Positions 28,660 to 45,702 of a stretch of DNA of 64,000 nt are shown here, piece by piece (position 1 is the stretch's first letter; every line of letters starts with the position of its first letter). Location: positions 1-64,000 of IMG/VR virus record IMGVR_UViG_3300045974_000100; one strand, written 5' to 3'. The translations under genes and the position numbers were made by a program. This DNA comes from a virus. Under the pieces are notes generated by a model. That model did no database searches. It saw nothing but the letters and a program-made list of their open reading frames with translations, and was not told the origin of the DNA.

Positions 28660-29784
28660 GTGGGTGACTTCGGTAGCGACGCTCTTGTGGGTAAGTCGAT
28701 GAAGACTGCCTACAAGACGGGCAGGGCATCCCGCGAACTGGTGGACACCCTTGAACGGTGGTCGCCGTCTAGGACTGGTTTCGGGTTGGACAAGCCAGGT
28801 CCGATGCCGCGTCGTGAGAAGGTCGCGTACCGGGTGGGCTACAAGCAGCCTGAGATGGAGAACGCGAAGCATAAGGCTGAACCGCTTGCTCTTCCTGCGG
28901 CCGCTGTAGGTGCTGGTGGTCTTCTCGTCGCCGCAGAGTATGACCGGGCGAAGAAGCGTCAACGTCGTGTGTCTAAGGGCGACTTGGGCGAGATGCGTGA
29001 GTGGTTGCCGAAGATCTACAGCCACGGCAAGACCATCCGTCGTGTGGATGCGGCGATGGACACGTCCAGGGGTGCTGAGAAGTTCATGGACGCTAAGAAG
29101 CAGCCCACGCTTCGCCGCAAGGCCAAGACTCACGCCGCCAACGCCGCTTACCGTCTTGGCTATCGTGAACCTGAGGTCAAGATCGGGGCTGCCGCAACTG
29201 CCTCTGGTGGCGCTATGGTCGGCGGTCTGACCGCTGTTAACCATGTGTGGCCCAAGGATGCCCACAAAGAGTCACTGGTGGGTAAAGCGTGGAATCAAAC
29301 GGACTACGGGATGCCTCCGTCGGCTCACCCGATCGGCGACCGGATCACTCCGAGCAATGCTGTCTTGGGTGGTGCTGCTGGGGCGGCGGCTGTGTCGGCG
29401 CGGTCTTTCAGCAATGCCCGCAACATGGACAACACGCTGATGGACCGGCACGAACTGAACCAACGGGGCCTGGACTCGGCGAAGTTGAAGCGTCAGGCTG
29501 CACAGAAGGACGTCGACTATGTGCATCGCGGCCGGTCAGTGACCAAGCCGTTGAAGCCGACGAAGTATCGGACGTTGCGAGCCGACCAGGGCATGTCTCG
29601 AGCGATGATCGACGAGGGTCGGGCAGCGGGTCGGGTGCGTCAGTCGTACACGGCACTGGGCCGGGCGGACAAGTTGGCCTCGCATGCGCGTGGTGCGGGC
29701 GCGTTAGGTGCAGTGGGCGCTGTCGGCCTCGGCTACCTGGGTATGAAGATGAAGTCTCGCCAAAATAGTCAGGTGCAGTACTGA
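28660..29784 (+). CDS. Basic Gly-zipper modular protein (putative head cargo polyprotein A)
   Basis: GGGAGG SD; modules delimited by LVGKS/VSKG/LVGKA; repeated AYR[VL]GY[KR]xPE followed by G/A hydrophobic helix. Confidence 0.75.
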   Translation: MGDFGSDALVGKSMKTAYKTGRASRELVDTLERWSPSRTGFGLDKPGPMPRREKVAYRVGYKQPEMENAKHKAEPLALPAAAVGAGGLLVAAEYDRAKKRQRRVSKGDLGEMREWLPKIYSHGKTIRRVDAAMDTSRGAEKFMDAKKQPTLRRKAKTHAANAAYRLGYREPEVKIGAAATASGGAMVGGLTAVNHVWPKDAHKESLVGKAWNQTDYGMPPSAHPIGDRITPSNAVLGGAAGAAAVSARSFSNARNMDNTLMDRHELNQRGLDSAKLKRQAAQKDVDYVHRGRSVTKPLKPTKYRTLRADQGMSRAMIDEGRAAGRVRQSYTALGRADKLASHARGAGALGAVGAVGLGYLGMKMKSRQNSQVQY

Positions 29785-31487
29785 TGACTGAAATGACCGG
29801 TGGTCGGGCTCTGGTCCTCAACAACCCTCCGCAAGGTTTGGGTGCTGGTGAGGAGCAGGCCCTCGATGAGGCGTTGAAAACGTCGCCTGACATCGAACTG
29901 GGTCTGTCCGGTCTGAAGCGGTACGGCGGCATCGTCGACGAAGAGTTCCTGCCGCAGTTGCGCGGGTCGCTCAAGGCGATTCAGATCTACCGGGAGATGT
30001 CGGACAACGACCCCATCATCGGGTCGGCTCTGTTCGCCATCAACAATCTGATCCGCAACGTGGACTGGCGTGTTGAGCCGTCCGGTAAGGACAAGGAGTC
30101 CGCGGACGCGGCGAAGTTCGTCGAAGAGTGCATGGAGGACATGGCCTCTCCGTGGGGTGACTTCATCATGGAGGTGCTGTCGTGCCTGCCGTATGGATTC
30201 GCGTGGCACGAGATCGTCTACAAGAAGCGTGACGGCCTGTACGCCAAGGATGGCGCGCACCGGAGCAAGTTCACTGACGGCAAGATCGGCTGGCGCAAGA
30301 TGCCGTTGCGCTCCCAGGACACCTGGCTGCGGTGGATCTTCGAGGACAACGGTGACGTGAAGGCGTTCGTCCAGTTGGCCCCTCCGACGTTCAAGACGAC
30401 GTACATCCCGATCGAGAAGTCGTTGCTGTTCCGCTACAAGACGTTCAAGGGCAACCCTGAAGGTGTCTCGATGCTGCGCCAGGCCTACCGGCCGTGGTTT
30501 ATGAAGAAGCGCATCGAAGAGTTCGAAGCCATCGGTGTGGAACGTGACTTGGCTGGTTTGCCTGTCATCAAGGTGCCGGCGAAGTACTTGAAGGCGAAGT
30601 CGGGCACGGACGAGTACAAGGCTGTGCAGGGTTTCACGAAGATGGCGAAGTCGTTGCGCCGTGGCGAGTCCGAGGGTGTTGTGTTCCCGTTGGAGTTCGA
30701 CCAGGACTCGAAGCAGCCCATGTTCTCGATCGAACTGTTGGGGTCTCCTGGTGGCCGCCAGTTCAACACGAACGAGATCATCCAACGCTATGAGGAGCGC
30801 ATCCTTCAGACGATGCTCGCTGACTGGCTTCTGGTGGGCCATGACGGCGGCACCGGCTCGTATTCGATGCACGTGGACAAGACCGGCATCTTCCGGACGG
30901 CGTTGAACTCGATCACGCAGATGATCGCTGATGTGCTCAACCGTCACGCCATTCCGCGGCTGTTCGAGTTGAACGGATGGCGCCCGGAGTCGTTGCCGAA
31001 GATCGTCCCGTCTGACGTTGACGCCCCTGACATCACCCAGTTGTCGCAGTTCATGTCCCAGATGGCCGGTATCGGCTTGAACTGGTTCCCGGACGCCGAT
31101 CTGGAGAACATGCTGCGCAAGGCGGCCCGTCTGCCGGTCCTGGACGAGGACGAGATGGAACGCCGGCGCATGTTGCAGCAGAAAGCGGAGTCGACGCAGT
31201 TCGCTCAGGCCAACCTCGAGTATGTGGACTCTCGTTTGCAGCTCGCGCAGGCCCTTGGTGCAGGTATGCCCTCGGATCAGGCCGCCCAAGCGGTGCAGTC
31301 GGGCCGTCAGCAGGACATGCAGCAGGAGCAGGGCCAGATCTCGGCTCAGCAGCAGGAGCAGTCGGCTCAGGCCGGTCATCAACGTCAACTGGAGTCCGCC
31401 GAGCATTCCTCGAAGTTGGCGATCTCGTCGGGGAAGGACAAGAAGCCGGCGGGTGGTGGGAAGAGTGGCGGGTCTTCCAAGACGTGA
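29784..31487 (+). CDS. Portal protein (DUF935 / Mu gp29-like)
   Basis: IYREMSDNDP, LPYGFAWHEIVYK, NPEGVSMLRQAYRPW, ERDLAGLPV, LNRHAIPRLFELN; Q-rich tail. Confidence 0.9.
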   Translation: MTEMTGGRALVLNNPPQGLGAGEEQALDEALKTSPDIELGLSGLKRYGGIVDEEFLPQLRGSLKAIQIYREMSDNDPIIGSALFAINNLIRNVDWRVEPSGKDKESADAAKFVEECMEDMASPWGDFIMEVLSCLPYGFAWHEIVYKKRDGLYAKDGAHRSKFTDGKIGWRKMPLRSQDTWLRWIFEDNGDVKAFVQLAPPTFKTTYIPIEKSLLFRYKTFKGNPEGVSMLRQAYRPWFMKKRIEEFEAIGVERDLAGLPVIKVPAKYLKAKSGTDEYKAVQGFTKMAKSLRRGESEGVVFPLEFDQDSKQPMFSIELLGSPGGRQFNTNEIIQRYEERILQTMLADWLLVGHDGGTGSYSMHVDKTGIFRTALNSITQMIADVLNRHAIPRLFELNGWRPESLPKIVPSDVDAPDITQLSQFMSQMAGIGLNWFPDADLENMLRKAARLPVLDEDEMERRRMLQQKAESTQFAQANLEYVDSRLQLAQALGAGMPSDQAAQAVQSGRQQDMQQEQGQISAQQQEQSAQAGHQRQLESAEHSSKLAISSGKDKKPAGGGKSGGSSKT

Positions 31488-31725
31488 CGTTCTTCGTTTC
31501 GCGCACGGCATGGTGTTGCAGCAGATCCAGCGCGAACAGGGCAATGTTGACGAACTGTTCCACCTGTACCTACAGGAAAGCGCGAAGTCGGGGTGGCCCG
31601 TGCAGGTGGCGGTCTTCAACATCGTCCGGGCGTTGAGTGCGGTGGGCGCGAAACTCGCCGAATCCGTGGACGATGAGGTTGTGAGCAGTCTGACTGTGAG
31701 CCTGATTGGGGATGACCGTGACTGA
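31465..31725 (+). CDS. Small hypothetical protein
   Basis: Fills the gap after the portal; start 31465 or 31510. Confidence 0.45.
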   Translation: MAGLPRRDVLRFAHGMVLQQIQREQGNVDELFHLYLQESAKSGWPVQVAVFNIVRALSAVGAKLAESVDDEVVSSLTVSLIGDDRD

Positions 31726-32980
31726 GCAGATGCCGGAACGGGCTTCACGCCGTAACGCTGCCACTCGTGCAGCTGCGGGTGGGGCCTTGTTTGGTTTGGG
31801 GTCAGCCACGCACTCTCTGGTTCGTTCTGATGTGGACCGTGTGTCGGGTTCGAAGGGTTGGGCGGGCGCCGGCAAGGATTCTGGCCATGTTCTGTCAGTC
31901 GGTCGGCGTAAGTTGGTCGATCACGGCCTTGCAGCCAAGCGAGCCAAGGAAGTGTTCCTGAACCCGGCTCACATCGGTGGGGGCATGTTGGGTCGGGCGG
32001 CCCAGATCACGGGCGCTGGCCTTGCTCTGATGGGCGCGAAGGGCATTGTGGCGCCGTCTGAGAAGAACGCCAGCAAGTTGTCGATGCATAACGAGATCGT
32101 CCGGCCGATGATCAACCACGCCACTCCCATTGACCCGGAGAAGATGGAAGCCCGGCTGCGTCGCCGTCAACCGGTGGCTAAGCGTCTTCCGGAGTCTGAG
32201 TGGAACGATCTGCAGCGCCGTCGTCGGCGGCAGCGGAAGATCGCGTTGACTTCTGGCACGTTGGGTGTGAGTGCTCTGGCGTTGCGTGGTCCGGACGCGG
32301 TGAAGTTCGCCGTCCGCCACAACCCAGAGAAGCTGAAGATGATCACTCCCGCGGTGAAGCACTCTCAGCACGCCTCAAACCTTCTGGGTACTGGTTCGAT
32401 CGGTATCGGCTCGATGGGTGCGTTCAACTCGGCGAAGATGGCCCACCTCGAGCACGAGCACGACAACGAGTTGCAGCGTCTGTCCAACATGGCTTCGTCG
32501 GCTGTCCGTAAGGACGCCTGGTTGGACAAGTACCGTGACCGGATCTCTCCGTCGGCTGAGCACGGATACAAGCATCTGAAGGGTGGTCGCAATGAAGCCC
32601 GAGGTACTGCCGTGGGAAGTGGCCTCTTGTCGGCAGGGTCGGGTGCGGCCGCGATCGGAGCGCTTCGTCGTGGAAACAAGGTCGACGGCGCCATGCTCTC
32701 CGCTGCGGCTCTGTCTTCCGGCATTGCCACGTATCAGCAGGGCAAGAAGGCTCATACCTGGAACAAGAAGTTGGGCAAGATCAAGGCCAAGGGTGAAGAA
32801 CGTGCCGCTCAAGGTATCTACGGCAAGGACCGTGAGGTAGCGAAGGCGTTCGGACTGATTCGACCCCCGAAGCCACCGAAGTTGGGGCCGTCGTCGATCC
32901 GTCGTGCCACCCTTAGACGGGGTGCTTCGGGGGCTATGGTCAACGTGAAGGCTGCGCCTGTGTCTGGAGGACTCCGGTGA
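31718..32980 (+). CDS. Basic Gly-zipper modular protein (putative cargo polyprotein B)
   Basis: PVAKR, AVRKD, EVAKA boundaries; six G/A/S-rich hydrophobic segments; R/K-rich; start approximate. Confidence 0.75.
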   Translation: MTEQMPERASRRNAATRAAAGGALFGLGSATHSLVRSDVDRVSGSKGWAGAGKDSGHVLSVGRRKLVDHGLAAKRAKEVFLNPAHIGGGMLGRAAQITGAGLALMGAKGIVAPSEKNASKLSMHNEIVRPMINHATPIDPEKMEARLRRRQPVAKRLPESEWNDLQRRRRRQRKIALTSGTLGVSALALRGPDAVKFAVRHNPEKLKMITPAVKHSQHASNLLGTGSIGIGSMGAFNSAKMAHLEHEHDNELQRLSNMASSAVRKDAWLDKYRDRISPSAEHGYKHLKGGRNEARGTAVGSGLLSAGSGAAAIGALRRGNKVDGAMLSAAALSSGIATYQQGKKAHTWNKKLGKIKAKGEERAAQGIYGKDREVAKAFGLIRPPKPPKLGPSSIRRATLRRGASGAMVNVKAAPVSGGLR

Positions 32981-35900
32981 CGACAAACGCACGACTCCTT
33001 GAGGTCATCCGTAAGCACGGACGCCAGGACCCGGATGCGGGCTGCCAACTCATCGACCAGGCGCTCATCTCGTACATGGATGACCTGGAGAAGTCGATGG
33101 GTCAGGATTTGGCTGACCTGCGCCTGGCTGCGGCCGGTGAGGCCATTTCCATCGGTAAGCGTGCGCTGGGCCGCGAATATGTGGAGTCGATCGCGAAGGG
33201 TGTGTACCCGGACGACGTTGACATGCTGCAACGCGCCCAGTGGATCGCTGACATTGAGCAGGCGCTGCTTGTGGCGAAGGCCGGTAACCCGTTCGGGCCT
33301 GGTTCTGGCACATCTACGGGTTCTGATGATGTGGAGAACTGGCAGGACGGCTCTCACCGTCGCGTCGTTCGTAACCGGTTCGGCCGGTTCGCCCGGTCCA
33401 TCAGCGACAAGGGCGCCAACCCGTGGTTCGGCCCGCATGCTCGCCGTTCCCCTCGGATCTTGACTGACGCCACCATCGGTGAGGGCAAAGAGGCCAAGTA
33501 CAAGGATTCGCTGTCACCTGAGGACAAGGCGCAAGCCTCGGTTCACCAGGGCCAGTGGAACCACGTCAACGATCTGATGCAGGAGTTCCTCGACTCGTTC
33601 GGGACGAACAAGGGTGTCAACGCGATCGTCACTTTGCGCGGCGAGGACGGCCGGGACAAGTATTGGGAACTCCCGATGGAGGGTGTGGAGCGCGGCAAGC
33701 AACTGCCGAAGCACTACGACTGGCCGTTGGGCGACAAGGCTGTCCAGATCGAGTTCGTTCCATCTGCGGACGCCAACGAGAACGAGATGAAGCGCCTGAA
33801 CGCGTTCGAGAACATGAACCTCATGGGTATGCCTGGCTATGCCCGTATGGCCTCGGTGGACCCGAAGCAGTGGTCGAAGTTGGCGGACACGTTCACGGAC
33901 AAGAACAAGGCCAACCAGTGGGACGAGAACGGCCGTTTGGGCCAGTTCATGGGCCGTACTGCGGCGATCACAGACGTGTTGCAGGCGTCGGGGTTCAACA
34001 ACAAGTACACGGGCCTCGCAGGACTTGTAGGGTCGCTCGGCCCAGATGCCGCGAAGGTGCTGGACCCGTACGTGCGCCAGGCCGCCTACCGTTACCGCGG
34101 CACTGAGACCACGCCGTCTTCGCAGTTGCGTAGCGAATTGGCCACTCCTGCGGCTCACACCATGGACGAGAACGAGGTGTTGGCTGAGCAGGCCCGCGCC
34201 ACTGAGTCTGTAAGGACTGCGCGTCCGGGCGGTTTGCACCCTGTTGATGGTGCGATCGCGTTGGCGTCGAAGAACCGTGAGGAGATGACTCCGGACCAGT
34301 TCAACATGCGTGTCCGAGCCAACCTTGCGGGTGGTTTCCTGGCTGGGAAGTTGCCGAAGGACCTGGCGACCGCTGAACTGTCACGCCGTTCGGGCCACAT
34401 CCTGCCCAGTCAGGGCGTGTTGCTCGACGACAAGGGCAAGATCGTCTCCCAGTCGGTCGGATACGCCGATGACCACTACTTGCCGTTCGACCTCAAGAAC
34501 CTCTCCCGTCTGCGCGGGGGCCAATACGTCCGGACGCGTGTTCAGGGAGGGCTGACGGGAGAGGACATCTACACGGCGGTGCAGACAGGAGCCCGTAAGG
34601 CTTCAGTGGTCTCGTCGTCGGGCTATTTCTCGCTCGAGTTCGCCCCTGATTTCCGTGGCGGCCGCGCGAACAGCGACAAAGCACGCCAAATGTATGACCG
34701 GTACTTGAAGATCCTTCAGGCCGTCGACGAGTCGGGCATGTACGTCCGCGACATCGACCCGTTGAAGAGGGAGCAACTGCGGTCCCGCGCGATCGACATC
34801 GCGAACGGCGACAAGGACATGTTCAAGCGCGAGTTTGAGCGTCTCGTCGACGAGGAGCGCATGAGTTCGGGCCGGGTGGAGGAAGGCGACCTCGACACGT
34901 TGCACGAAGAGGTTGTGCGGGATCTGTCTGCGGGTGGGAAGCAGGCACGTCCGGCTGACATCGCTGACGAGTTTGAGCGTCGGGTGGAGGAGAAGCGCAA
35001 CCTGCAGGCGTCGGAGTTGAAGTTGAACGCTGAAGGGTATGCGTTGGCGTTGCACACGTTGCAGCAGCAGTACCCGTACTTCATTCGGGCGATCGAGTTC
35101 CACGACCTCAAGGGCGCCGGCGGTTTCCTCAACGCTTTGGGTGTGCCTGGGAACGTGCCGGCGAACCGTCACGCCAAGGACATGGGTCGGGTGCGTCGCG
35201 GGGATCTGCGTCCGGACCAGGTCGGGTTCAAGCCGAAGGAAAGCAGCGAGCAGGTCCGTGAATACAGCGCCCCAGCCGGTGCTGCGCCGAAGCCTGCCGC
35301 TATGGAGGGTGAAGACACCGCGGAGGAGGCCTCTAAGCCGACCGACGTGGTGAAGCCGAACGCTCCGAAGATGCCTACGGGCCGGTTCAGCCAGATCATC
35401 GACCAGTCTCGTCCTTCCCTGGACAACCAGAAGGGCCAGACGTTGGGTGCGTTCTTTGACGCCTGCGCGTTGGCCGGCACGAGCAAGTACGAGGAGCGTT
35501 TGGGGCTGGGATCGTCCAGTTTCGACTCTCAGACCACGAACTTGGCTCGCGTCACCTGGTTGATGGCTCATAACAAGGATGACTCGATGGCGGTCCTGAA
35601 TGGGCCGAACGGTGGGGAAGCGGTCGCTGCGTTGGGTGACGCGGAAGCGGTGAAGTCCGCATGGCAGGCCGCATTGGGCTTGTCAGCGAACCCGTCACTT
35701 CAGGGCTCGGATGAAGACCTCGAGACGACAATTCTGGGGTCCAACAAGCGCAGCGTCGTGTCCGACCGGATCGCTGAAATCGCTGCCCGTGCGTCCGATC
35801 TACTGTTCGTCACCTCTGGTCCTGGTCCGTTCACGCCTCCGCGTGGTGACGTGTTCGCTGCTGATGCGCGTGCCCAGTTGCCGTCGCAGGTTCAGTCGTT

Positions 35901-36480
35901 GACGAGTTACGAGCAACTGTTGGCATGGGCTGATAGTGACAAGAAGGGCGCGAACGAGGTTCAGTCACGCGCGAAGCAGTTGATGTCTACTGCGCACGGT
36001 CCGTCGTTGACGGGTGCTTCTCGTGCGGCTCAGGAGCAGTTGAACTTGCTCAAGGCAATCAAGACTGCTCGTCGTGAATGGTCGCGTCGTTCCGATAAAG
36101 AGCGCACAACGAACGCATTCCAGCAGGCCGTGGCCAATGCTTACGGCGCTGGGTTCAAGACGAACATGCTCAGCGGCTTTTTGACCGCGTACAAGCCGAA
36201 CGAACTCACTGATGATGTCCTGCGGACGGAAGCTGAAGACATTCAGTCCGGTTGGACGTTCCTCACCGCGCAGCGCACCTTGAACCTCATGGACGCCAGG
36301 TCGGCTGACTGGGTGGATCGCGTGCTGTCTGGAGGTGGTGGTGCGGGCCCAAAAGCGTGGCCGGCCCCGGATCACAGCCTGGCGGCGTATCAGGTGGGCA
36401 AGTCGTCCTCGCCCCGACGGGTCGTCATCTTGCCGAAGGATCATCCGGTCAGCAAAGCGGTCCAGGCCAGACACATGTAG
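32977..36480 (+). CDS. Large head-associated protein (1167 aa)
   Basis: GGAGG SD; N-terminal SIGKR/SIAKG/LVAKA motifs then RNRFGRFA; lies between portal and protease. Confidence 0.8.
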   Translation: MTTNARLLEVIRKHGRQDPDAGCQLIDQALISYMDDLEKSMGQDLADLRLAAAGEAISIGKRALGREYVESIAKGVYPDDVDMLQRAQWIADIEQALLVAKAGNPFGPGSGTSTGSDDVENWQDGSHRRVVRNRFGRFARSISDKGANPWFGPHARRSPRILTDATIGEGKEAKYKDSLSPEDKAQASVHQGQWNHVNDLMQEFLDSFGTNKGVNAIVTLRGEDGRDKYWELPMEGVERGKQLPKHYDWPLGDKAVQIEFVPSADANENEMKRLNAFENMNLMGMPGYARMASVDPKQWSKLADTFTDKNKANQWDENGRLGQFMGRTAAITDVLQASGFNNKYTGLAGLVGSLGPDAAKVLDPYVRQAAYRYRGTETTPSSQLRSELATPAAHTMDENEVLAEQARATESVRTARPGGLHPVDGAIALASKNREEMTPDQFNMRVRANLAGGFLAGKLPKDLATAELSRRSGHILPSQGVLLDDKGKIVSQSVGYADDHYLPFDLKNLSRLRGGQYVRTRVQGGLTGEDIYTAVQTGARKASVVSSSGYFSLEFAPDFRGGRANSDKARQMYDRYLKILQAVDESGMYVRDIDPLKREQLRSRAIDIANGDKDMFKREFERLVDEERMSSGRVEEGDLDTLHEEVVRDLSAGGKQARPADIADEFERRVEEKRNLQASELKLNAEGYALALHTLQQQYPYFIRAIEFHDLKGAGGFLNALGVPGNVPANRHAKDMGRVRRGDLRPDQVGFKPKESSEQVREYSAPAGAAPKPAAMEGEDTAEEASKPTDVVKPNAPKMPTGRFSQIIDQSRPSLDNQKGQTLGAFFDACALAGTSKYEERLGLGSSSFDSQTTNLARVTWLMAHNKDDSMAVLNGPNGGEAVAALGDAEAVKSAWQAALGLSANPSLQGSDEDLETTILGSNKRSVVSDRIAEIAARASDLLFVTSGPGPFTPPRGDVFAADARAQLPSQVQSLTSYEQLLAWADSDKKGANEVQSRAKQLMSTAHGPSLTGASRAAQEQLNLLKAIKTARREWSRRSDKERTTNAFQQAVANAYGAGFKTNMLSGFLTAYKPNELTDDVLRTEAEDIQSGWTFLTAQRTLNLMDARSADWVDRVLSGGGGAGPKAWPAPDHSLAAYQVGKSSSPRRVVILPKDHPVSKAVQARHM

Positions 36481-37325: not shown

Positions 37326-40027
37326 GGTGGTGGGATGACCCGTCAACAGCGCGCACCGTCCTTGGTGTCGTGGACGATTCTGACGTCGGCCAAGGGGTGG
37401 GTACGGCCGTTCTCGGCTATCACGCTCTCGCTATGGGTGCTCTCAAACCTTTGGCTGCGGCTACTCTCGTCGACTCGGGCCAGGTTCGTAACGCTCTCGC
37501 CCATGTGGATCTAGAGCCGGTCAAAGAGGCCATGGCGATGGCACTGTCGCATGCTGTGGATGATCCGGAGTTGATCGCTGAACGGTTCGTCAACGGCATG
37601 CACGAGTCGTCGTCTGCTCTCACGACGCGCCTGGTCGACGTGTGGACGAACTCGAAGATGGCATGGCCGCAGGCAATCGAACGCGCCGCTGAGGTTCACG
37701 GTGTCCCTCCGGAGTTCCTGGGCACTTACCCGGTGGACGCGAAGTTGCCGATGTTCCCGGAGTCTGTGCGCCGTGACAAGGCTGACCGTGTCCTCATGTC
37801 GTTCGCCGGCAGCTTGTCGAGCATTCCGGACGTGCCGGCTGTCTTGGCGAAGTCCTACCAGTTCGAAGAGGACCATCCGCGGGGTGAAGGTGGGAAGTTC
37901 CGCACTAAGGAGGAGCAGGAGAGGGACGCCCGTAAGGCCAAGCGGATCAAACGCATGAACCGGATGAACGCGGTCACAGCGCAGGCTCAGCAGAAGCGCA
38001 CCACGCAACGGGTGAAGGTGGAACGCGCCGAACAGGAGCAAGCCAACCAGGCCGAGCAGATGCGCCAGTTGATGGCGTTGCAGCCGACCCGTGCAGCGTT
38101 GCAAGAGGAACTGGGCATGGTGCCGCTCAAGCGCCAGTCCGGTCTGCAGGGGCGCCAATCTCAGCCGAAGGTGCAAGGTAAGGGCCAGGACGGCCCGTCA
38201 CCGTACCCGGAGATCAGCGACGCCCTACTCAAGCGGTACCCCGGTGACTATCCCTCTGCGGCGATCGCTTCGGACAAGGTGTTCTTCCTCATTCCGAATG
38301 CTGTGTCGTCGATCATCGACAATGAGTTCAACGGCACACCGCTGTCGTGGTGGAACTTGGCTGAAGCGGCCGGTGCTGCCCCTCATGCGGTGCGGAAGTT
38401 CAACCCGATGTCGGAAAACGAGTTCAACACGTTCGTCCGGAACAAGCTGCTGAACAGCACCGAGTACCAGGCTGCAGTGAACAAACTCATCTCTGTGGGT
38501 AGTTCGGGTGAGACGGGCCGTATTGGGAGCGCGGAGTACCAGGCGGCGTTGGACAACGTCTCGAGGGCCGCCCAGGTCGTCATCGACAACGCTCCGGAGT
38601 TCCGTGAGTACACGGTGGGGTGGACGCCTGGTGACGAGTTCCTCATCCATGACGCGAACATGTCATCACCGGTGCCTGAGAAGTGGCTGCCGGCGGAGGG
38701 CGCCAAGTACACACCTCTTCCCACGGTGACTTCTGGCAGTGGTGTGAAGGCTGAGGTGTTCGTCGATCTCCCTGGGTTGAAGGGAACGCCGCACAAGCAA
38801 CGCCTCCAGGTGCATTTCCCGGCTACTCAGGAGTTCGGCGCTGGCCAAATGTACGGCGGTGGCATCACCAGTGGGCCTCACGTAGCGGTGGAGTTCGGCA
38901 AGTCTGGTGAGTGGGAGGAACAGGAGCATCCTCGTGGGGATCGTGGCCTATTCACGGACAAGCCAGTGAGCCGCAGAGACGTCCGGGCGCGTCGGTTTAT
39001 GGCGATCCAGCAGCAAACCAAGCAACGTCGGTCTCGTGATGTGCGTCAGGAAACTGTTCGCGCGCAGCAAGAGGCCCCAGCCGTCGCAGCGGAGCGCTCG
39101 AAGCTTGTGGATCTGTTCGGTGCACGGGAACAGCCCCTTGAGCGTCGTCAGTCCGGCCTTCAGGGCCGTCAACGTCGTGAGTCGCTGAGTGGGTTGCAGG
39201 CTCCGTTGCCTCGTCCGAAGGCCACTCCGCATGTGTTGGACGGCATGTTGGGCTTCTATACGCCTGATTTCCTCCCCGACATCGCGTTCATTGACCCGAA
39301 AGGCGCCAAACCAGGTGACATCTGGGACAACGAGGCAGGCTTTGATGCCAACGAACCGGATGCGATCAACCCACACATGGAGCCGGTCGCGAACTTCAGC
39401 GACATCGGGGTGGATACCGGCAGTGGGGCATCAAAGTCGATCATCATCAAGGTCGACAAGGGGTCGTGGTTCTCCAACACAGTCCTGTCGAACGCTCACC
39501 GGGACCAGGCGCAGACACCTGAGCAGGCCAACACGTCAGGGAACGCCGCCTACAAGAAGATCTTGGACTACATCCAGAACCGTCACGAGATGTTGTCGGC
39601 TGTGTTCGATGACCAGGAAGTCGCGCAGGGTGAAGCCGACCGGATGAACTTGTTCGACACGAAGGCCGGCCGTGACTCTTACGAATGGGTCGACGAGGAC
39701 GGCACTGACGTCGGGTCTGAGCACTACCAGGTGATCCCGGCGCCGGTCGGTGGCAAGGAACGGTTCCGCATCGTCCCCGCTTACGCCGATGACCGTGAGG
39801 GCTCTGTTGTCCGCAACTCGCTGAACTTGCTCACTGGCACTCCGCAGGCGTGGAAAGAGTTCGCCCGGACGGGTCAGGCCCGCATCGAACGCGTCAACAC
39901 GTCCCACAACACCTATGACTGGGATGCGAACGATCTGATGTACGGCGGGGACAAGATCCTTTCGACTGAAGTGAACACCGATGTGGCGTTGTTCCGCATC
40001 AGCCCTGTTACCGGTGAACGGCGTTGA
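37322..40027 (+). CDS. Large head-associated protein with two HPRG..G.F modules
   Basis: LAKSYQFEEDHPRGEGGKFRTK and FGKSGEWEEQEHPRGDRGLFTDK; duplicated RQSGLQGRQ. Confidence 0.8.
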   Translation: MRWWDDPSTARTVLGVVDDSDVGQGVGTAVLGYHALAMGALKPLAAATLVDSGQVRNALAHVDLEPVKEAMAMALSHAVDDPELIAERFVNGMHESSSALTTRLVDVWTNSKMAWPQAIERAAEVHGVPPEFLGTYPVDAKLPMFPESVRRDKADRVLMSFAGSLSSIPDVPAVLAKSYQFEEDHPRGEGGKFRTKEEQERDARKAKRIKRMNRMNAVTAQAQQKRTTQRVKVERAEQEQANQAEQMRQLMALQPTRAALQEELGMVPLKRQSGLQGRQSQPKVQGKGQDGPSPYPEISDALLKRYPGDYPSAAIASDKVFFLIPNAVSSIIDNEFNGTPLSWWNLAEAAGAAPHAVRKFNPMSENEFNTFVRNKLLNSTEYQAAVNKLISVGSSGETGRIGSAEYQAALDNVSRAAQVVIDNAPEFREYTVGWTPGDEFLIHDANMSSPVPEKWLPAEGAKYTPLPTVTSGSGVKAEVFVDLPGLKGTPHKQRLQVHFPATQEFGAGQMYGGGITSGPHVAVEFGKSGEWEEQEHPRGDRGLFTDKPVSRRDVRARRFMAIQQQTKQRRSRDVRQETVRAQQEAPAVAAERSKLVDLFGAREQPLERRQSGLQGRQRRESLSGLQAPLPRPKATPHVLDGMLGFYTPDFLPDIAFIDPKGAKPGDIWDNEAGFDANEPDAINPHMEPVANFSDIGVDTGSGASKSIIIKVDKGSWFSNTVLSNAHRDQAQTPEQANTSGNAAYKKILDYIQNRHEMLSAVFDDQEVAQGEADRMNLFDTKAGRDSYEWVDEDGTDVGSEHYQVIPAPVGGKERFRIVPAYADDREGSVVRNSLNLLTGTPQAWKEFARTGQARIERVNTSHNTYDWDANDLMYGGDKILSTEVNTDVALFRISPVTGERR

Positions 40028-40060
40028 AATGCGCCATGATGAAGCGATTAGGAGGTTGTC

Positions 40061-40828
40061 GTGGCTGACTCAATGACGGTCGTCAAGTCCCTAAACGAGA
40101 TTGACCCCGGTTTCCAGCGCCTGTGCAAGACGATGTTCGGCGACGGGGTCGACACGGAGCGTCTGTGGACGTACCTCTACGGGGTCGACGGCATCACCAA
40201 GATGGCTCCTCCGGACGCGCATGTGCTTTCTTCCGGCGCGAAGCAGGGCGGTAAGCGCATCTTGGCCGCGGTGAAGTCCCGTCCCGGCATTGCGCTGGAG
40301 TCGTCGTCTGCTGCTGTGCTCGCTGACCGGTCCATTGCTCGGCGTAAGCGCAAGCCACAGCCCAAGATGTACTCGCCGTTCGACTACGACACGCCGACGT
40401 TCGTCGCTAAGGGTGTCATCACTGGCACTGACCCGGTCCGCCAGCAGGTTTTTGGCTGGGCGTCGATCTCTGAGCACAACGGTGTCCTGATTGAGGACCG
40501 CCAGGGCGACATCATCATGGAGCCGGAACTGGAGAAGGCGGCCTACAAGTACGTGGTCGACTCGCGTGTGGGTGGCGACGAGCATCGCCGTGTCCCGGTG
40601 CAGAAGTTCGATGACGGCATGATTCCCCTTCACGCCTCTGACTTGATCGAGTCGATGGTGTTCACGAAGGAGAAGATCGCCAAGCTGCATCTTCCGGAGT
40701 CCACTCCGATCGGCTGGTGGGTGGGGTTCCAGGTCAACGACAACCAGGTGTGGGACGACGTCGTCACCGGTAAGCGCACCGGTTTCAGCATCCATGGCAA
40801 GGGTCGCCGTATCCCGGTCGAGGCCTGA
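40061..40828 (+). CDS. Prohead maturation serine protease, XkdF-like
   Basis: QVFGWAS, DRQGD...ELEKAAYKY, GDEH, LIES, PIGWWVGF...VW..V..G..TGFSIHG. Confidence 0.85.
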   Translation: MADSMTVVKSLNEIDPGFQRLCKTMFGDGVDTERLWTYLYGVDGITKMAPPDAHVLSSGAKQGGKRILAAVKSRPGIALESSSAAVLADRSIARRKRKPQPKMYSPFDYDTPTFVAKGVITGTDPVRQQVFGWASISEHNGVLIEDRQGDIIMEPELEKAAYKYVVDSRVGGDEHRRVPVQKFDDGMIPLHASDLIESMVFTKEKIAKLHLPESTPIGWWVGFQVNDNQVWDDVVTGKRTGFSIHGKGRRIPVEA

Positions 40829-40829
40829 C

Positions 40830-41054
40830 GTGGAGTTCGGGTGGGCCTTGGAGGTCCTCAAAGAGGGTGGTCGTGTTGCCCGTGTGGGGTGGAACGGCCC
40901 GAATCAGTGGATCGCCATGCAGCACCCGGACGAGCATTCGAAGATGACGTTGCGCTACATCTACATCCACACGGTTCAGGGTGACCTTGTTCCGTGGCTG
41001 GCTAGTCAGACTGATTTGATCGCTGAGGACTGGGTGGAGGTGCCTGATGAGTGA
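40830..41054 (+). CDS. DUF2829 / Tad2-like anti-defence protein
   Basis: FGWALEVLKEGGRVARVGWNG...VPWLASQTDLIAEDW. Confidence 0.85.
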   Translation: MEFGWALEVLKEGGRVARVGWNGPNQWIAMQHPDEHSKMTLRYIYIHTVQGDLVPWLASQTDLIAEDWVEVPDE

Positions 41055-41352
41055 ACGCCCCCAGGTGTCTGCACTGATCGGTAAGGCCTCCCGTTTCGTT
41101 CCGGCTGACGCCCAACCGTTGGGTCCGCTCGACTTCGGGCATCCCATCCCTCAGATCGGCCACCGTCCCATTGATCCTGTGTTGATGTCGTCTGCGGCTC
41201 GGATGATGGTCGACGCGGAGGCTGCAGCGTTTGGAAGACGCGTAAGCCGTAAGCGCCGTCGTGAACTGCAGGGCGCCTACACCGACTTCGCTGGTGGACG
41301 CCAGTGGCTATACGCCCCGTTGAACTCCGCGATCTCAGGGAACAACCGATGA
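41047..41352 (+). CDS. Small basic head-region protein
   Basis: GGAGG SD; LIGKA motif near the N-terminus. Confidence 0.65.
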   Translation: MSERPQVSALIGKASRFVPADAQPLGPLDFGHPIPQIGHRPIDPVLMSSAARMMVDAEAAAFGRRVSRKRRRELQGAYTDFAGGRQWLYAPLNSAISGNNR

Positions 41353-43655
41353 GCAGCCCAGTCCGGCAGTACAAGCAGCCCTCGAAGGCTGAGACCGCTG
41401 TCGGCATTGGTCTGAACACTGTCGCGTTGGCTGGTGGTGTGTCGGGGTTGTCCCAGGCCACGGACCATTTCCGTCGTCGCGTGTTCAACATCCCGATCGA
41501 TGCCCGCTCCACTGAGGAGAAGGCCGCTGCACGCCTGGCGAAGGTGCCGTCGAAGCCGTTGAAGGCCGCTGTAAGACCGATTTTGGAGCATCCTCGTGGT
41601 GCTGCGATTGGTCTTGCTGGTGGTGCGATGGGGTTGCATGCCACTGAATTGGTGGGAGATGTGTTGGCGCGGCGGTCGTTCCGTCGTCAGCAGCAGGCCA
41701 ACAAGGACAGTGTGGGTAAGGCGTTGACGCCGTTTGCCTCGGTGGCGCCGAAGGACAAGCACATCTTCCCGACGAAGCCGAAGAAGGTGGGTGTGCAGGG
41801 CGCTGGTCTTGCCTCCAAGCCCACGTCGGTGGCGTCGAATCCTCAGAGTCAGAACGGTCAAGTGTTGAAGGGGTTTGTGATGAGCGACTTGGGTAACGAG
41901 ACCCCGTTCGGCTCCCGTTCGTTGGCTGCCGAGGACGTCTCCAAGGGCATGTTGGGTGTCGCACTTGCGGGTGCGAAGTCGTTGCGTGGCGGTGCGAACA
42001 TCATCGGCCGGCAGCTGCGGTCTGAGGGTGGCGCCAAGACGGTGGGCAACCAGTTGGCCCAGGGTTTCCGCGGCCGTACGGCAGGAATGTCGCGTAACGC
42101 GGAGATGGGCGAGAAGTTGGGTCAGCGGGTGCAGGGTGTGAATCCTCGTTCGCCGTTCCCGACGCATGCTGGTCCGACGTCTCCGATGCGTTCTCCGATC
42201 ATGCCGGCGTTCCGGATCGGCTACCGCGCTCCTGAGATCGCTGGGGCTGCAGGTCTTGGTTTGGGTGCTGGTGCGTTGGGTGAGGCACACGGCCGTCATG
42301 TGTCTAAAGCTGCCATGGGACCTCGTACCGCTGCTCGAGCGCAGGAACTGGCTGGCAAACTCGCTGGCCGTCGCGCTTTCACGCCGAAGGAAAAGACTGT
42401 TCTCGCGGGCAAACAGCATCGCGCTCAGGGACTGGTTGAGCGTTCCCATGAAACGGCTGAGCAGTCCGCTGACTGGCGCAAGTTCGGCGGGGAACAGGAC
42501 CGTGAGGACCGCGGGTTCAACAAGGCTCGCAACTTCGTTGAGCGGTTCGACTGGGATCAGAAGACTGGGGCGCGTCGCAAGGCCATTCCGGGCTACAAGA
42601 CTTCGCCTCCTCGTCAGCGCGCACTGACTGGCGACAACAAGACTTACCTGGGCATGCCGAATAACCCTGGTACGGGTACCCGCCAGGGTTTGGGCGCTGG
42701 TCGTGGTGGCGAAACGGTCGACTACGAGTACACGGGCAATCGTCGCGTGCGGAAGTCCACTGACCGTGACCGTCGCGCTGGCAAGGGCTTCCAACAGTTG
42801 GGTGCCGCTGAATTGGCCGCTGCCCCGGTTGCTGGTGGCGCTGGTGCTGTCGGTTTGCACTCCATGAAGCGCAACATCGGTCAGCAGAAGCACTGGGAAG
42901 AGGCTTCCACTCACATGAACGGTGAGGCGAAGATCAACGCCCTGGTGAACTCGTCCAAGCATGAACTCAAGGCCTACAAGATGGCCCAGTTGGGTGGTCG
43001 TGGGACAGCGATCGGTGCTGGTTTGGCTGCGTTCGGCGCCACTGACCTGGCGATCGGCCACCACTTGAAGAACCGCGGCCGCAAGCCTGTCGCCAAGGGT
43101 ATGAAGCCCATCCGCAACGTGGGAGCGCCATTCCTTCGCCGTTATGCCGGACGCAACAACCCGGTGAAGGTCACGGAGATCATGGCGCGTTCCAAGGGCA
43201 ACCTGGCTCTTCGCGCGCATGACGCCACTCACGGCCTCAATCCGTCTGGTGACGCGCTTCAGCGGTCCAACCCGTTCCTTCCTGGCGCTACGCATCAGCG
43301 AGGGAAGTTGGTCATGGACATGAACGGAGCCGCCGGTCGTAACGCTGACCGTGCTGTGTCCAAGGCTGAACGCCGTTTCGACGCCGAGTCTGACCGTCAA
43401 CGCCGCGTCGGTATCTCCGCTGGCGCTGGTGTCGCAGGTGGCGCAGGTCTGGGTTACGCAGCCCACCACCACTTGAAGGGTTCCGGCGCCATCAACTACG
43501 ACAAGGGCCGGCTGTTGCTCAACGGTCGTAAAGCTGCCGGTACGCATCGTGGCCGCATCGGTTTGGGCCTCGCAGCCGGTTCAGCGATCGCCAGTTCTGC
43601 CGGTATCGGTGCCTACTCGTATGGCACGTCTGAGCGGAACCGCCGATGGAACTGA
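41349..43655 (+). CDS. Basic Gly-zipper modular protein (putative cargo polyprotein C)
   Basis: ATGA start; SVGKA, DVSKG, HVSKA, PVAKG, AVSKA boundaries; ~7 Gly-rich hydrophobic helices. Confidence 0.78.
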   Translation: MSSPVRQYKQPSKAETAVGIGLNTVALAGGVSGLSQATDHFRRRVFNIPIDARSTEEKAAARLAKVPSKPLKAAVRPILEHPRGAAIGLAGGAMGLHATELVGDVLARRSFRRQQQANKDSVGKALTPFASVAPKDKHIFPTKPKKVGVQGAGLASKPTSVASNPQSQNGQVLKGFVMSDLGNETPFGSRSLAAEDVSKGMLGVALAGAKSLRGGANIIGRQLRSEGGAKTVGNQLAQGFRGRTAGMSRNAEMGEKLGQRVQGVNPRSPFPTHAGPTSPMRSPIMPAFRIGYRAPEIAGAAGLGLGAGALGEAHGRHVSKAAMGPRTAARAQELAGKLAGRRAFTPKEKTVLAGKQHRAQGLVERSHETAEQSADWRKFGGEQDREDRGFNKARNFVERFDWDQKTGARRKAIPGYKTSPPRQRALTGDNKTYLGMPNNPGTGTRQGLGAGRGGETVDYEYTGNRRVRKSTDRDRRAGKGFQQLGAAELAAAPVAGGAGAVGLHSMKRNIGQQKHWEEASTHMNGEAKINALVNSSKHELKAYKMAQLGGRGTAIGAGLAAFGATDLAIGHHLKNRGRKPVAKGMKPIRNVGAPFLRRYAGRNNPVKVTEIMARSKGNLALRAHDATHGLNPSGDALQRSNPFLPGATHQRGKLVMDMNGAAGRNADRAVSKAERRFDAESDRQRRVGISAGAGVAGGAGLGYAAHHHLKGSGAINYDKGRLLLNGRKAAGTHRGRIGLGLAAGSAIASSAGIGAYSYGTSERNRRWN

Positions 43656-44155
43656 GGCTTGCTTCTACGGGCGTGGCCAAGGGTCTTCCTGTGGCGCTGC
43701 GTAGCGTCAGCGAGAGCACTCTGTACGGTGAACAACGTCGCCTGGCGCATCGCAGTGGTCGGGTGGCTGCTCGCGGTGTGGCGTTGGCGCGTGAGAACTA
43801 CCGCAAGTCCCCTGACATGGCGGCGCTGCTGCATCAGGCAAGTAAGAAGGCGGGACAAGCTGGTGTCCAGGCGCGGCGAGATGCGCGGTCTCTGGTCGGC
43901 AAGGCTGATGTCCCTGACGAGCCGGAACGTCGGCCGTTCTCAATACCTAACCCGAAGAAGAAGCCGAACGGTTCTGTGGCATCGATTGAGCAGGCTGTGA
44001 AGCGCTCGGGTAAAGGACGCCGTGTGGCGTTAATCGCGATTCCCGTTGGGGTTGGTGCTGCCGGTGCTGGCGCCTTTGGTTTACATGCTGCGACACGCAG
44101 TCGAACCAAAGTTGCTAGTGGGGCGCGTAACTCCTCAAGTTCGGTCAGGATGTGA
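43646..44155 (+). CDS. Basic Gly-zipper protein (putative cargo D)
   Basis: GVAKG, LVGKA; C-terminal VALIAIPVGVGAAGAGAFGL. Confidence 0.7.
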   Translation: MELRLASTGVAKGLPVALRSVSESTLYGEQRRLAHRSGRVAARGVALARENYRKSPDMAALLHQASKKAGQAGVQARRDARSLVGKADVPDEPERRPFSIPNPKKKPNGSVASIEQAVKRSGKGRRVALIAIPVGVGAAGAGAFGLHAATRSRTKVASGARNSSSSVRM

Positions 44156-45276
44156 CTGTTATGAGTACACGGCAGCGTTACGCACTGGTCGACATGGATC
44201 TCGATGAGGTGTCCACGGTCGGCATCCCAGCTAACCAGTTGGGGATGATTGTCTTGGCCAAAAGTGCCGGCAGCGGCCAAGACCTGATTTCCGAGGAGGG
44301 TTCCATGCCGGGTCAAGAGTTGTATGACGCTGAAGGCAGGGTCGTTGACCCGGAGGCGCTGGAAGTTGGCGACTACGTGTATGACGGTCCAGATGATGAA
44401 GCCGAAGAGTTCCAGGTTGTTCCTGTGGACGAAGACGGTTACATCCTCGAAGACGAACTCGAGCTTGTCGGCAAGGCTGGCGAACTTGAGATGGGTGGAC
44501 GCGCTGCACGGTATGGCGCGAAGGCCTCGAAGGCTCGCCGTGCGTTGCAGGCTCAGGGTGATCGTGCCCGTGCCGGCGCTGGCCGCGCCAAGAACTACAT
44601 GGTCGAGCACCGCCCCACTGCAAGTCCTGGTGAGGCTGGCGAGAAGTGGCACACAGGTGGCCGTGAAGGTTACCGCCTGACTTCCGAGGGCAAGCGAGTC
44701 GCTGGCTATGCCGGTGCGGGCGCTGGTGCTCTCGGTGCTGCTGGTGGTGGCGGTTACGCTGCTGGCCGTCGTGGCCATGTGGGCAAGTCGTTCGCCCAGT
44801 CGATCCTCGACGATGTGTCCAAGGCCGTCACCACTGACGACCAGATCAGCATCGTTGCCAAGGCGCTGCAGCAGTCCGAGAACGAGCGCGAGTTGCTCAT
44901 TCGGAAGTCTGCGCAGCTCGAGGCTCGCCTGAACGAAGCCGAAGACGCTGCGACGTTGAACTGGGCGATCTCCAAGGCTGCCGAGTACAACTTGCCGATC
45001 GACGCCGACGAGTTCGGTCCGATCCTCAAGCGCCTGGTCGAGAACATGCCTGAGCGCGACATGTACGTGCTCGACGAACTGTTCAAGTCCATCGGTGCCA
45101 CATTCTTCGAGGAACTGGGTTACAACGGCGGTTCACCGGAGTCGTCTTACGACTACGTGGCCGCCGCCGCTCAGGAACTCGTCGCCAAGACAGGTGCTTC
45201 GGACGCGCAGGCCATCACGGCCATGTACAACGCGAACCCGGACGCCTACGACGCCTACCTCGCGGAAGGACGGTAA
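44152..45276 (+). CDS. Scaffolding protein with N-terminal protease-like segment
   Basis: Directly upstream of decoration protein and MCP; N-terminal DEVSTVGIPANQ; acidic region, coiled coil, C-terminal NPDAYDAY. Confidence 0.8.
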   Translation: MTVMSTRQRYALVDMDLDEVSTVGIPANQLGMIVLAKSAGSGQDLISEEGSMPGQELYDAEGRVVDPEALEVGDYVYDGPDDEAEEFQVVPVDEDGYILEDELELVGKAGELEMGGRAARYGAKASKARRALQAQGDRARAGAGRAKNYMVEHRPTASPGEAGEKWHTGGREGYRLTSEGKRVAGYAGAGAGALGAAGGGGYAAGRRGHVGKSFAQSILDDVSKAVTTDDQISIVAKALQQSENERELLIRKSAQLEARLNEAEDAATLNWAISKAAEYNLPIDADEFGPILKRLVENMPERDMYVLDELFKSIGATFFEELGYNGGSPESSYDYVAAAAQELVAKTGASDAQAITAMYNANPDAYDAYLAEGR

Positions 45277-45282
45277 CGGCTC

Positions 45283-45702
45283 ATGGCTTCCGACGAGCGC
45301 GTTGTCGCGTACACCCTCCAGGCTGACTCCAGCATCGGCATTTACACGGGTCCTCCCGGTATGCCGGGTTCGGCCAGCCCCAACAACGGCAAGGCGTACT
45401 GCTTTGTGAAGATCACTGGCACCCGCCAGGTGGGTTTGCAGAGCGTCGCTGGTGCTGCATCGATCGGCGTGCTGTACAGCAAGCCCCAGGCAACCGGTGA
45501 TCCTGCTGCGGTAGCGGTCTCCGGCATCGTCAAGGTCCTGACAGACGCGACAGCAACGATCGTGGCCGGTTCGCCGATCACCTCGAATGCTGCCGGTCTT
45601 GCCAAGGTCGGTGTTCCGGGAACGGACGCCATCCAGGGCTATGCCTTGCAGGGGTCGACGACGACGAGCCAACTCATCTCCGTCCTCCTCCGTCAGCCGT
45701 AA
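45283..45702 (+). CDS. Capsid decoration / cement protein
   Basis: Small G/A-rich protein before the MCP; SIGVLYSKP...V.VSG..KV...I.AG..ITSNAAG.A. Confidence 0.75.
   Translation: MASDERVVAYTLQADSSIGIYTGPPGMPGSASPNNGKAYCFVKITGTRQVGLQSVAGAASIGVLYSKPQATGDPAAVAVSGIVKVLTDATATIVAGSPITSNAAGLAKVGVPGTDAIQGYALQGSTTTSQLISVLLRQP

Follow-up and report, generated by a model that had tools for sequence, protein, structure and literature searches.

To our knowledge, head-interior proteins that are matured by a protease have been well studied only in T4 and in the giant phiKZ-like phages. In T4 the internal proteins enter the head along with an acidic scaffolding core and are injected together with the DNA. 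Here we describe a set of basic modular open reading frames (ORFs) in the head-gene block of a virus, IMG/VR record IMGVR_UViG_3300045974_000100. The window that we analysed consists of the first 64,000 nucleotides (nt) of this record (bases 1-64000 of 73,167 bp; the record has direct terminal repeats and is rated complete); its guanine-plus-cytosine (GC) content is about 61%, and all positions given below are positions in the window. Four ORFs, here called o374, o424, o783 and o169, together with a fifth, o101, appear to be made of basic modules, many of them with predicted Gly/Ala-rich helical hairpins, that are joined or preceded by flexible leader and spacer peptides. These peptides typically seem to end in a hydrophobic residue, a (small) residue and Lys or Arg, with Ala, Gly or Ser following. 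From sequence comparison we hold the modularity and the conservation of the junctions with high confidence; that the four ORFs, o101 and the middle of a neighbouring scaffold-like protein are modular precursors of head-interior proteins has, in our estimate, an even chance of being right.

We place this system with the protease-matured head-interior proteins, and it differs from the known ones in its protease family, in its Lys-ending motif, in being built like a polyprotein, from shuffled modules and spacers, and in the nature of the modules. Like the T4 proteins IPI-III and the other substrates of gp21, the proteins described here are basic and linked to head genes, and three of them (o374, o169 and o101) carry a short leader that ends in the motif. 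The T4 motif, however, ends in Glu, gp21 belongs to another protease family, and each T4 internal protein is one unit and has no series of modules and spacers; no sequence similarity to the T4 internal proteins was found in the window ORFs by Pfam or PHROG matching. The T4 propeptides target proteins into the prohead core, according to the part of PMC10052503 that was available to us, and the same part reports for phage SPN3US 14 cleavage sites in nine substrates, propeptides of 20-254 residues, the motif A-X-E at P3-P1, and removal of an N-terminal propeptide at 13 of the 14 sites. As far as that part of the source goes, phiKZ and SPN3US resemble the window in cutting many head-interior proteins at a three-residue motif that is repeated in the propeptides, but that motif is A-X-E where hydrophobic-x-Lys/Arg stands here, so that the Glu which marks the E-proteins is absent. 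In the giant phage, again as that part describes it, most sites end an N-terminal propeptide, whereas here the motif also joins modules that are found as separate genes elsewhere. SPN3US is a 240-kilobase (kb) myovirus; the present genome is 73 kb and has a long presumed tape-measure gene and a gene with a major-tail-protein match.

Polyvalent proteins are multi-domain proteins encoded near portal and head genes, for which packaging and perhaps release by proteolysis are predicted (PMC5512222, Iyer et al. 2017; as described in the part of that source available to us). In that description they have recognisable enzymatic or DNA-binding domains and a metallopeptidase of their own that is suggested to process them; here no such domain was recognised. 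The proteins of the window have instead basic Gly-rich hairpins and a junction motif that they have in common with the scaffold. In adenovirus, pVII, pX/Mu and pVI are basic DNA-condensing and membrane-lytic precursors that are cut inside the capsid at a short consensus, one that further proteins of the capsid interior have as well. The analogy is one of logic only: this is a eukaryotic virus with a cysteine protease, and there is no homology. Closer at hand, Roseobacter phage CRP-6 and MT835491 have the order portal, (MuF-like) gene, XkdF protease, scaffold with an ELSLVDRPAN-type strand, cement and lambda-E-type capsid protein, with [VI]GK[SA] sites; the 6.3-6.4 kb around their proteases are without the basic Gly-rich ORFs, the large proteins o1167 and o901, the AAA+ gene and the scaffold insert that characterise the window. 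Our literature search did not find the present system described.

The basic modular genes and their relatives

The original prediction, an earlier note on this DNA, had described o374, o424, o783 and o169 as strings of very basic modules. All four are open on the + strand, and the description is borne out by isoelectric points (pI) of 10.3, 11.2, 11.2 and 11.7, respectively, and by 15 uncharged Gly/Ala-rich runs of 14-25 residues each. ORF o374 (28660-29784; 374 residues) lies directly 5' of the portal gene; it begins with a 12-residue leader, MGDFGSDALVGK, and has motif sites at K12, K106 and K209 and four Gly/Ala-rich runs. After the portal gene comes o424 (31706-32980; 424 residues), with sites at K159 and K380 and five runs. 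Its first start codon is the TTG at 31706 and there is an in-frame GTG at 31718; the true start may be 31712 or 31718. The third, o783, extends from 41304 or 41349 to 43655. It has 783 residues when read from its first GTG at 41304, the start from which its residues are numbered here, and 768 from the ATG at 41349; the shorter form is likelier because that ATG overlaps the upstream stop codon (ATGA) and agrees with the N-termini of the homologues. It falls into six motif-bounded pieces, divided at K139, K214, K335, K598 and K687, and contains three modules, A (nt 41373-41729), B (nt 42309-42755) and C, a two-helix hairpin (nt 43365-43652). ORF o169 (43646-44155; 169 residues) overlaps both of its neighbours and has a 12-residue leader, MELRLASTGVAK, a site at K86 and one run. 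The + strand ORF o101 (41047-41352; pI 11.1) was absent from the earlier list; we count it as a fifth member of the family, with a 13-residue leader, MSERPQVSALIGK, followed by a single module, D. The leaders of o374, o169 and o101 end in LVGK, GVAK and LIGK; o424 and o783 have no leader of this kind.

Cutting the four ORFs at [VI][AGS]K yields 16 pieces, two 12-residue leaders and 14 pieces of 44-263 residues. The earlier description gave each module one or two Gly/Ala-rich helices; this is true only in part, since four of the 14 have no such run. The third-position GC of these ORFs is 0.58-0.70, below that of their neighbours (mostly 0.74-0.86), and it is homologues at the protein level that mark o424, o783 and o101 as real genes. 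None of o374, o424, o783 and o169 has a Pfam match at E ≤ 0.01, anything meaningful at E ≤ 10, or a PHROG family. A Pfam hit of one homologue, P0005, to P22_gp7 (E = 0.011) was under the cut-off and was set aside.

When 1.84 billion proteins were searched by HMMER with o783, 63 matched at E ≤ 1e-3, the query included. The matches form three separate blocks (residues ~24-142, ~335-519 and ~673-783) that agree with the motif-bounded pieces 1-139, 336-598 and 688-783, and the homologues, which are 97-824 residues long, carry the modules singly or in other combinations. An alignment of the C-module retrieved 16 loci on viral contigs, about ten of them distinct, which fall into GC groups of 43-46% and 65-71%; it retrieved no locus from a prokaryotic genome collection of 185,579 species, so that no prophage copies were seen. 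Loci that reach far enough keep the order o424-like gene, o1167, AAA+ gene, o901, protease, one to three basic Gly-rich ORFs, scaffold, cement and capsid protein (the neighbours of the basic ORFs are described in the last section), and in five related records basic Gly-rich ORFs of 174-1012 residues stand before the portal gene, at the position of o374. Basic Gly-rich ORFs occupy three conserved positions, with length and module number varying widely among relatives. The o424 orthologues in these loci are 32-36% identical to it, with E-values down to 1e-37. Variation in module number with conserved boundaries, which the original prediction had proposed to look for in relatives, is present in the three homology blocks, in the 16 loci and in the junction contexts given below. 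Judged by these comparisons the feature is evidently real and conserved across the clade.

Word-based searches for homologues, two of the three of which scored only the 8000 candidates with the most common words, found just o783 and o169 themselves and, for o374, just a 100%-identical fragment of 309 residues. A profile of the relatives' small pre-portal ORFs matched neither o374 nor any other protein of the window, and the tie between o374 and those ORFs is confined to position, composition and a short YRxGY[KR]xPE / GT[VI]GY[KR]RP resemblance. No match came back when viral contigs were scanned with o783 or the protease as single proteins, and in the ESM Atlas the best scores were 0.80-0.81, under the 0.9 at which a match counts as a lead, with all matches being viral hypothetical proteins.

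The junction motif

Every instance of the motif that had been quoted beforehand is present: 12 in the four ORFs, six in the scaffold, FVAK-G at residues 114-118 of the protease and three in o1167. The 1750 residues of the four ORFs contain 12 copies of V[AGS]K, where shuffles that preserve composition lead one to expect about 2.4. Because the motif had been picked by eye, we scanned 517 patterns of the form a-[AGS or other]-b, among which V-[AGS]-K came first (z = 6.0; family-wise limits 5.5 at 95% and 6.3 at 99%). The scaffold has five V[AGS]K sites against 0.27 expected, a number reached in none of 2000 shuffles. The density in the four ORFs is 6.9 per 1000 residues and that in 90 other ORFs is 0.58 (11 sites in 19,015 residues), the latter being a crude comparison set that omitted the 1167-residue ORF. 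The claim of enrichment over background thus stands for the four ORFs and the scaffold of the window, but it is not repeated in the cargo-like ORFs of relatives, whose counts are weighed below.

It is at the edges of the modules that the motif is conserved. Directly before the C-module core (RRFDPEADRQRR...) the tripeptide [VILM]-x-K stands in 50 of 50 distinct contexts, a count read by eye from a printed list, and is usually followed by A or R; residues farther upstream are not conserved. The start of the B-module (GWG[GA]D) is preceded by hydrophobic-x-K in five of five cases, and its end is RVRK followed by S, A or D in seven of seven. The D-module, which is the body of o101, follows [VI]SK in all five relatives examined, where it lies within or ends a longer basic ORF or stands behind a 14-residue leader. 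In o424 the position of K380 is Lys in five of five aligned relatives and that of K159 in four of five. When the alignments of o424, scaffold, protease, o1167 and o901 are pooled, 11 of 19 motif lysines are Lys in at least 80% of orthologues, but only 13 of the 151 other lysines are (Fisher p = 1.6e-6). The middle residue of the motif is frequently E, N, D or K in the low-GC relatives, and what is conserved across the aligned sequences reads as hydrophobic-x-Lys; the restriction to [AGS] is a trait of the GC-rich members.

The peptides that precede the modules recur in two settings. Among 62 o783 homologues, 16 have a leader of at most 20 residues that ends in the motif (mean of shuffles 5.9, maximum 14 in 500). 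The sequence SRFGGxxxVG[KR] occurs four times at the N-termini of small pre-portal ORFs and four times inside longer ORFs. Homologue P0006 opens with WGVEHGEE[VI]xK as its leader and has it again as an internal spacer after RVRK-S, and the spacer is bounded by the motif on both sides (RVRK-S...EEIGK-I). A peptide that is kept by stand-alone modules and serves as a linker elsewhere makes a pattern that would be expected of gene fission and fusion at a processing site, and it suggests that the leader does more than link, for example as a loading tag.

An AlphaFold2 model of the C-module, built on 52 sequences, has a mean predicted local distance difference test (pLDDT) score of 80.9. Residues 1-20, which include the V-S-K, are unstructured in it; they are followed by a helix (22-55), a small beta hairpin and a second helix (69-103), and the hairpin ends in RNQPW at the very C-terminus. 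Foldseek searches of PDB and BFVD with this model returned nothing at E ≤ 0.001. The top BFVD match, an uncharacterised protein of an uncultured phage, had 32% identity and an E-value of 0.02, above that threshold; weak PDB matches (E ≥ 3.9) were not taken as evidence. On the Hessa scale, used here for a rough estimate that is not the output of a dedicated predictor, the best 19-residue windows of the Gly-rich stretches sum to +3.4 to +5.8, and their Kyte-Doolittle means are 1.2-1.8. Such sums are far from the range of classical transmembrane helices and do not support their presence, and the basic modular proteins could remain soluble in cytoplasm and capsid. The pieces were originally proposed to be bacteriocin-like, membrane-active peptides. 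That proposal is not supported: the pieces are 44-263 residues long and weakly hydrophobic, and neither bacteriocin nor glycine-zipper families gave a Pfam match even at E ≤ 10, a PHROG or a Foldseek match.

The scaffold and the protease

The + strand ORF at 44152-45276, directly before the cement and capsid genes, has the gene position, acidity and helices of a scaffolding protein, and is predicted to contact the protease. Its pI is 4.5 (4.1-4.6 in relatives) and its only family match is a weak one (3e-4) to phrog_13547, which has no assigned function. An N-terminal strand motif (residues 7-37; 44170-44262), in which D18, E19, V20, S21, V23, A27 and N28 are invariant, is followed by an acidic stretch, a basic insert and a helical C-terminal domain. 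The insert is a basic Gly-rich module (residues 109-212; nt 44476-44787) lying between LVGK-A and HVGK-S, and an insert that is likewise basic and Gly-rich stands at this position in all the scaffold orthologues. Four further sites lie in the C-terminal domain, and sites in the C-terminal part are 12-71 residues apart. The original prediction had the motif in common between scaffold and basic ORFs, and six of the seven scaffold sites are indeed kept in all eight relatives; the seventh, HVGK-S, is a conserved boundary with M or K in relatives. It is in the relatives' scaffolds, and there alone, that the enrichment is strongly replicated, with 51 three-residue motifs against 9.1 expected and 49 four-residue motifs against 2.7. 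The relatives' capsid protein (1 against 6.4 expected) and cement protein (0 against 5.4) are depleted in the motif. In a scaffold model of low overall confidence (pLDDT 52.5), of which we used only the helical part 213-374 (pLDDT ~65-75), four of five C-terminal sites are at or near helix ends; the basic insert, ~106-212, is of low confidence.

The XkdF-type prohead protease (40061-40828, + strand) matches PF14550 at 9.8e-14 (51.9 bits against a cut-off of 24), its residues 127-251 covering positions 12-125 of the 126 of the profile. Its catalytic domain comprises residues ~118-255, and a conserved N-terminal domain (residues 1-47) ends in G-I-T-K (GISK in relatives). S243, in a GFS motif, and H175 are invariant in nine sequences and are presumably the catalytic residues of this serine protease fold. 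In a complex prediction protease residues 100-255 and scaffold residues 1-60 scored 0.87, against 0.00 for the best control, with contact agreement between runs of at least 75% and a partner pLDDT of at least 51. The mark used for such scores is reached by 58 of 80 solved complexes and by 2 of 110 mismatched pairs, a calibration that holds only roughly here, since our own alignments were used. The modelled contacts, between the strand (44170-44262) and the protease (40412-40825), place scaffold residues 7-25 against protease residues 242-245 (the Ser), 170-176 (with H175), 160-164 and 221-223. Profile searches of PDB sequences with the alignments of o1167, o901, the protease and the scaffold yielded no match with an E-value under 0.27; fold-level memory in the prediction is possible, and the model supports binding between scaffold and protease. 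In Roseobacter phage CRP-6 and MT835491 the scaffolds encoded beside XkdF-type proteases share the opening strand motif and have [VI]GK[SA] sites, so the strand may, if the model is correct, be a general means of tethering or completing proteases of the XkdF-type family. If the modelled contact is real, it is the scaffold that carries the protease into the procapsid; a scaffold N-terminus beside the catalytic serine would suggest how these proteases enter procapsids and perhaps how they are controlled there.

Proposed precursors of head-interior proteins and the alternatives

Start and stop codons overlap at o374/portal (where the portal start and the o374 stop share one base), o424/o1167, o101/o783, o783/o169 and o169/scaffold. 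Since the genes overlap, the basic precursors would be produced alongside portal protein, protease and acidic scaffold. They would then enter the procapsid along with the scaffold, where the XkdF-type protease, held on the scaffold N-terminus, would cut after Lys. Leaders and spacers would be removed, the scaffold would break up and exit, and basic modules of about 44-263 residues would be freed; these would remain associated with the DNA and would probably be released along with it when the phage infects a cell. The separate parts of this scheme differ in how far we trust them. Packaging in the head is the part that we consider reasonably probable; cleavage by the protease is, on balance, slightly favoured; and a membrane-directed role of the freed modules is unlikely. 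Our guess at the fate of the modules after cleavage is neutralisation of DNA charge together with an action on the host membrane. A fuller reading, to which we attach only a small probability, joins these elements: the leader or spacer would be loading tag and cut site at once, the protease would be completed or switched on only once the scaffold strand lies beside its Ser, and the ejected cargo (glycine-zipper hairpins, o1167, o901 and perhaps the AAA+ protein) would act early, on the host membrane or in early infection.

A number of observations weigh against the precursor reading. Homologues of o374 and o169 were not detected. In the relatives' cargo-like ORFs the three-residue motif [VIL][AGS]K is at its expected frequency (33 observed, 30 expected), and the four-residue motif (29 against 13.3) does no better there than in downstream ORFs (19 against 6.6). 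The variable middle residue in low-GC relatives means that the motif was widened after the fact, and the junction and lysine counts are not independent, because the orthologues are akin to one another. Two of the places in which the motif had been noted outside the basic ORFs and scaffold hold up only in part: FVAK-G does lie just before the protease catalytic domain, but it is not conserved at its alignment column, relatives having [AMV]-x-K about ten residues upstream; and the three instances in o1167 are there, but of its five sites (K61, K74, K101, K1142 and K1160, near both ends) only K61 is present in all orthologues, the other four not being conserved by column. Both motif sites of o901 are likewise not conserved by column. 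A tripeptide at module edges could also be a structural or binding motif. The Tad2-like anti-defence gene that lies in the head block makes gene position weak evidence. Searches by tblastn of 50,697 phage records with o1167, the C-module and the scaffold gave no match, so the clade is without a cultivated member in that collection. Our literature search found no Lys specificity, and no cleavage specificity of any kind, for XkdF-type proteases, nor did it turn up the cut after Lys of HK97.

The alternative that survives best is still improbable: the basic ORFs would be sacrificial scaffold or core proteins that pair with the acidic scaffold and so help to nucleate or size the procapsid; degradation at the Lys sites and expulsion would follow, leaving no mature product in the virion. 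The motif is densest in the scaffold, which itself bears a basic module, and the opposite charges of acidic scaffold and basic ORFs (pI 10-12) suit co-assembly. The propeptides of prohead proteases are generally expected to leave the head, to go by SPN3US in the part of PMC10052503 available to us. Folded modules with conserved ends, such as the C-terminal hairpin with its RNQPW, nevertheless fit a retained product better, and the pieces are long (44-263 residues) in comparison with the 12-71 residues between sites in the C-terminal part of the scaffold.

There is also a slim chance that the multi-module proteins are never cut and act at full length, the tripeptide being a binding or capping motif for docking on scaffold, portal or AAA+ protein. 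The tripeptide always travels with the downstream module, as an element intrinsic to the module would, and two points already raised, the bulk enrichment that is not specific in relatives and the Lys specificity not found in the literature, are easily accommodated. An uncut protein is harder to reconcile with a motif that sits in a segment modelled as unstructured, that recurs at six conserved sites of the scaffold, the classic substrate of such proteases, and that is depleted in capsid and cement proteins; nor does it account readily for spacers bounded by the motif on both sides, as in P0006, or for the short leaders that stand-alone modules keep.

Quite unlikely, in our judgement, are membrane proteins of the infected cell that function outside the virion, in superinfection exclusion or envelope remodelling, and are encoded by morons among the head genes. 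The Gly/Ala-rich hydrophobic stretches are flanked by Arg and Lys, a clear moron (the Tad2-like gene) lies in the same block, and related Arthrobacter phages have, by annotation, non-structural genes between portal and capsid. But the stretches are too weakly hydrophobic, the leaders are without a hydrophobic core like that of a signal peptide, the three gene positions are conserved across a clade that spans 43-71% GC, the genes overlap portal and scaffold genes, and all scaffold orthologues contain a module of this kind. Chance, that is, spurious frames in GC-rich DNA with the motif a by-product of composition, has next to no standing: in its favour are the weak GC bias by codon position and the long antisense ORFs that overlap these ORFs, but phages of 43-45% GC have homologues at the protein level, shuffles fall short of the motif count and the motif lysines are conserved, so that in our view it is already refuted for o424, o783 and o101, with o374 and o169 left to position and composition only.

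Should the precursor reading be right, a clade of phages with genomes of 66-73 kb gives about 15 kb of its head block to cargo, and that cargo is composed of shuffled modules with a common junction, in a manner akin to the polyproteins of eukaryotic viruses. A leader followed by hydrophobic-x-Lys would then be a sequence rule for recognising packaged proteins in metagenomic phages with XkdF proteases, and possibly a tag with which foreign proteins could be loaded into capsids. Processing of this kind may have escaped notice in cultured phages, since a cut after Lys cannot be told from that of trypsin in ordinary virion proteomics.

Neighbouring genes and other features of the record

The genes of the head block are all on the + strand, as are the ORFs at 20905-24834, 46709-46981, 56718-57131 and 60709-61074. 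The large terminase gene (25870-27429) is followed by three small ORFs and then by o374. The portal gene (29784-31487) is of the Mu type (PF06074, 1.5e-34; phrog_113, 2e-89); the portal protein is 59-62% identical in five related records and has no [VI][AGS]K site. The cement or decoration protein (45283-45702) and the lambda-E-type major capsid protein (45716-46699) are without the motif in the window; their family matches are PF09956 (5e-5) and phrog_673. By tblastn the capsid protein matched 196 phage records, each at less than 60% identity, and megablast with 18.7 kb of the window found one record, covering 2% of the query; no near relative among cultivated phages emerged.

The large conserved protein o1167 (32977-36480), a possible co-cargo, is of unrecognised fold and has no Pfam, PHROG or PDB relative. 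Its orthologues are 30-33% identical over the full length, and its central core is highly conserved, as in SQGVxxDxxGxxVSQSVGxxDDHYLPFDLKNL...GGQYVRTR. The AAA+ ATPase that follows (AAA and AAA_lid_6; 36531-37325, with the ATG at 36531 a likelier start than the GTG at 36357) is CbbX/SpoVK-like; it has orthologues in the related loci that reach its position and no Pfam or PDB relative beyond the AAA domain. In o901 (37322-40027), which has no PDB relative, a conserved N-terminal domain (residues ~1-160) precedes two copies of a motif, [LF][AG]K-S...EExHPRGxxGxF at residues 175-195 and 525-545, each followed by a basic Gln-rich stretch with SGLQGRQ. Residues H185, P186, R187, G191 and F193 are invariant in eight orthologues, whose consensus, ELVSKQxxEFxEExHPRxxxGRF, has ELVSK before the first HPR motif. 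Similar HPR...G.F motifs occur in other phage head-associated proteins.

Between the protease gene, whose 3' end it overlaps, and o101 lies the Tad2-like gene of Thoeris anti-defence (40794-41054; 86 residues; PF11195, E = 2e-23; phrog_1048 and phrog_872). It looks like a moron, since it has no match among the ORFs of the related loci.

After the capsid gene, an ORF at 46709-46981 encodes 90 residues, against 202-268 in relatives (L006:13331-13939 and L009:12740-13546), in which the C-terminal extensions resemble FN3-type repeats by eye (e.g. ...YDFRVAA...); the ORF of the window seems to have just the N-terminal part. Motifs at the N-termini of the relatives' post-capsid ORFs were considered and dropped, VLRLAK-A not being kept in the orthologue of the window. 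Upstream of the terminase gene, a frame of 1309 residues (20905-24834) consists for the most part of GSLTL[AS]G[ST]A-type repeats, several dozen in number. No Pfam family matches it and its GC by codon position (0.57/0.66/0.62) is unusual; it may encode a repetitive fibre or surface protein, or may be a wrong reading frame. Downstream of the head block there is a gene with a major-tail-protein match, and an ORF of 1631 residues (51348-56243) was taken as the tape measure from its size and position only. In the tail region the ORFs at 56718-57131 and 60709-61074 match PF23140 (podophage GP4 fibre gp80) at 7.6e-16 and 1.2e-6, respectively.

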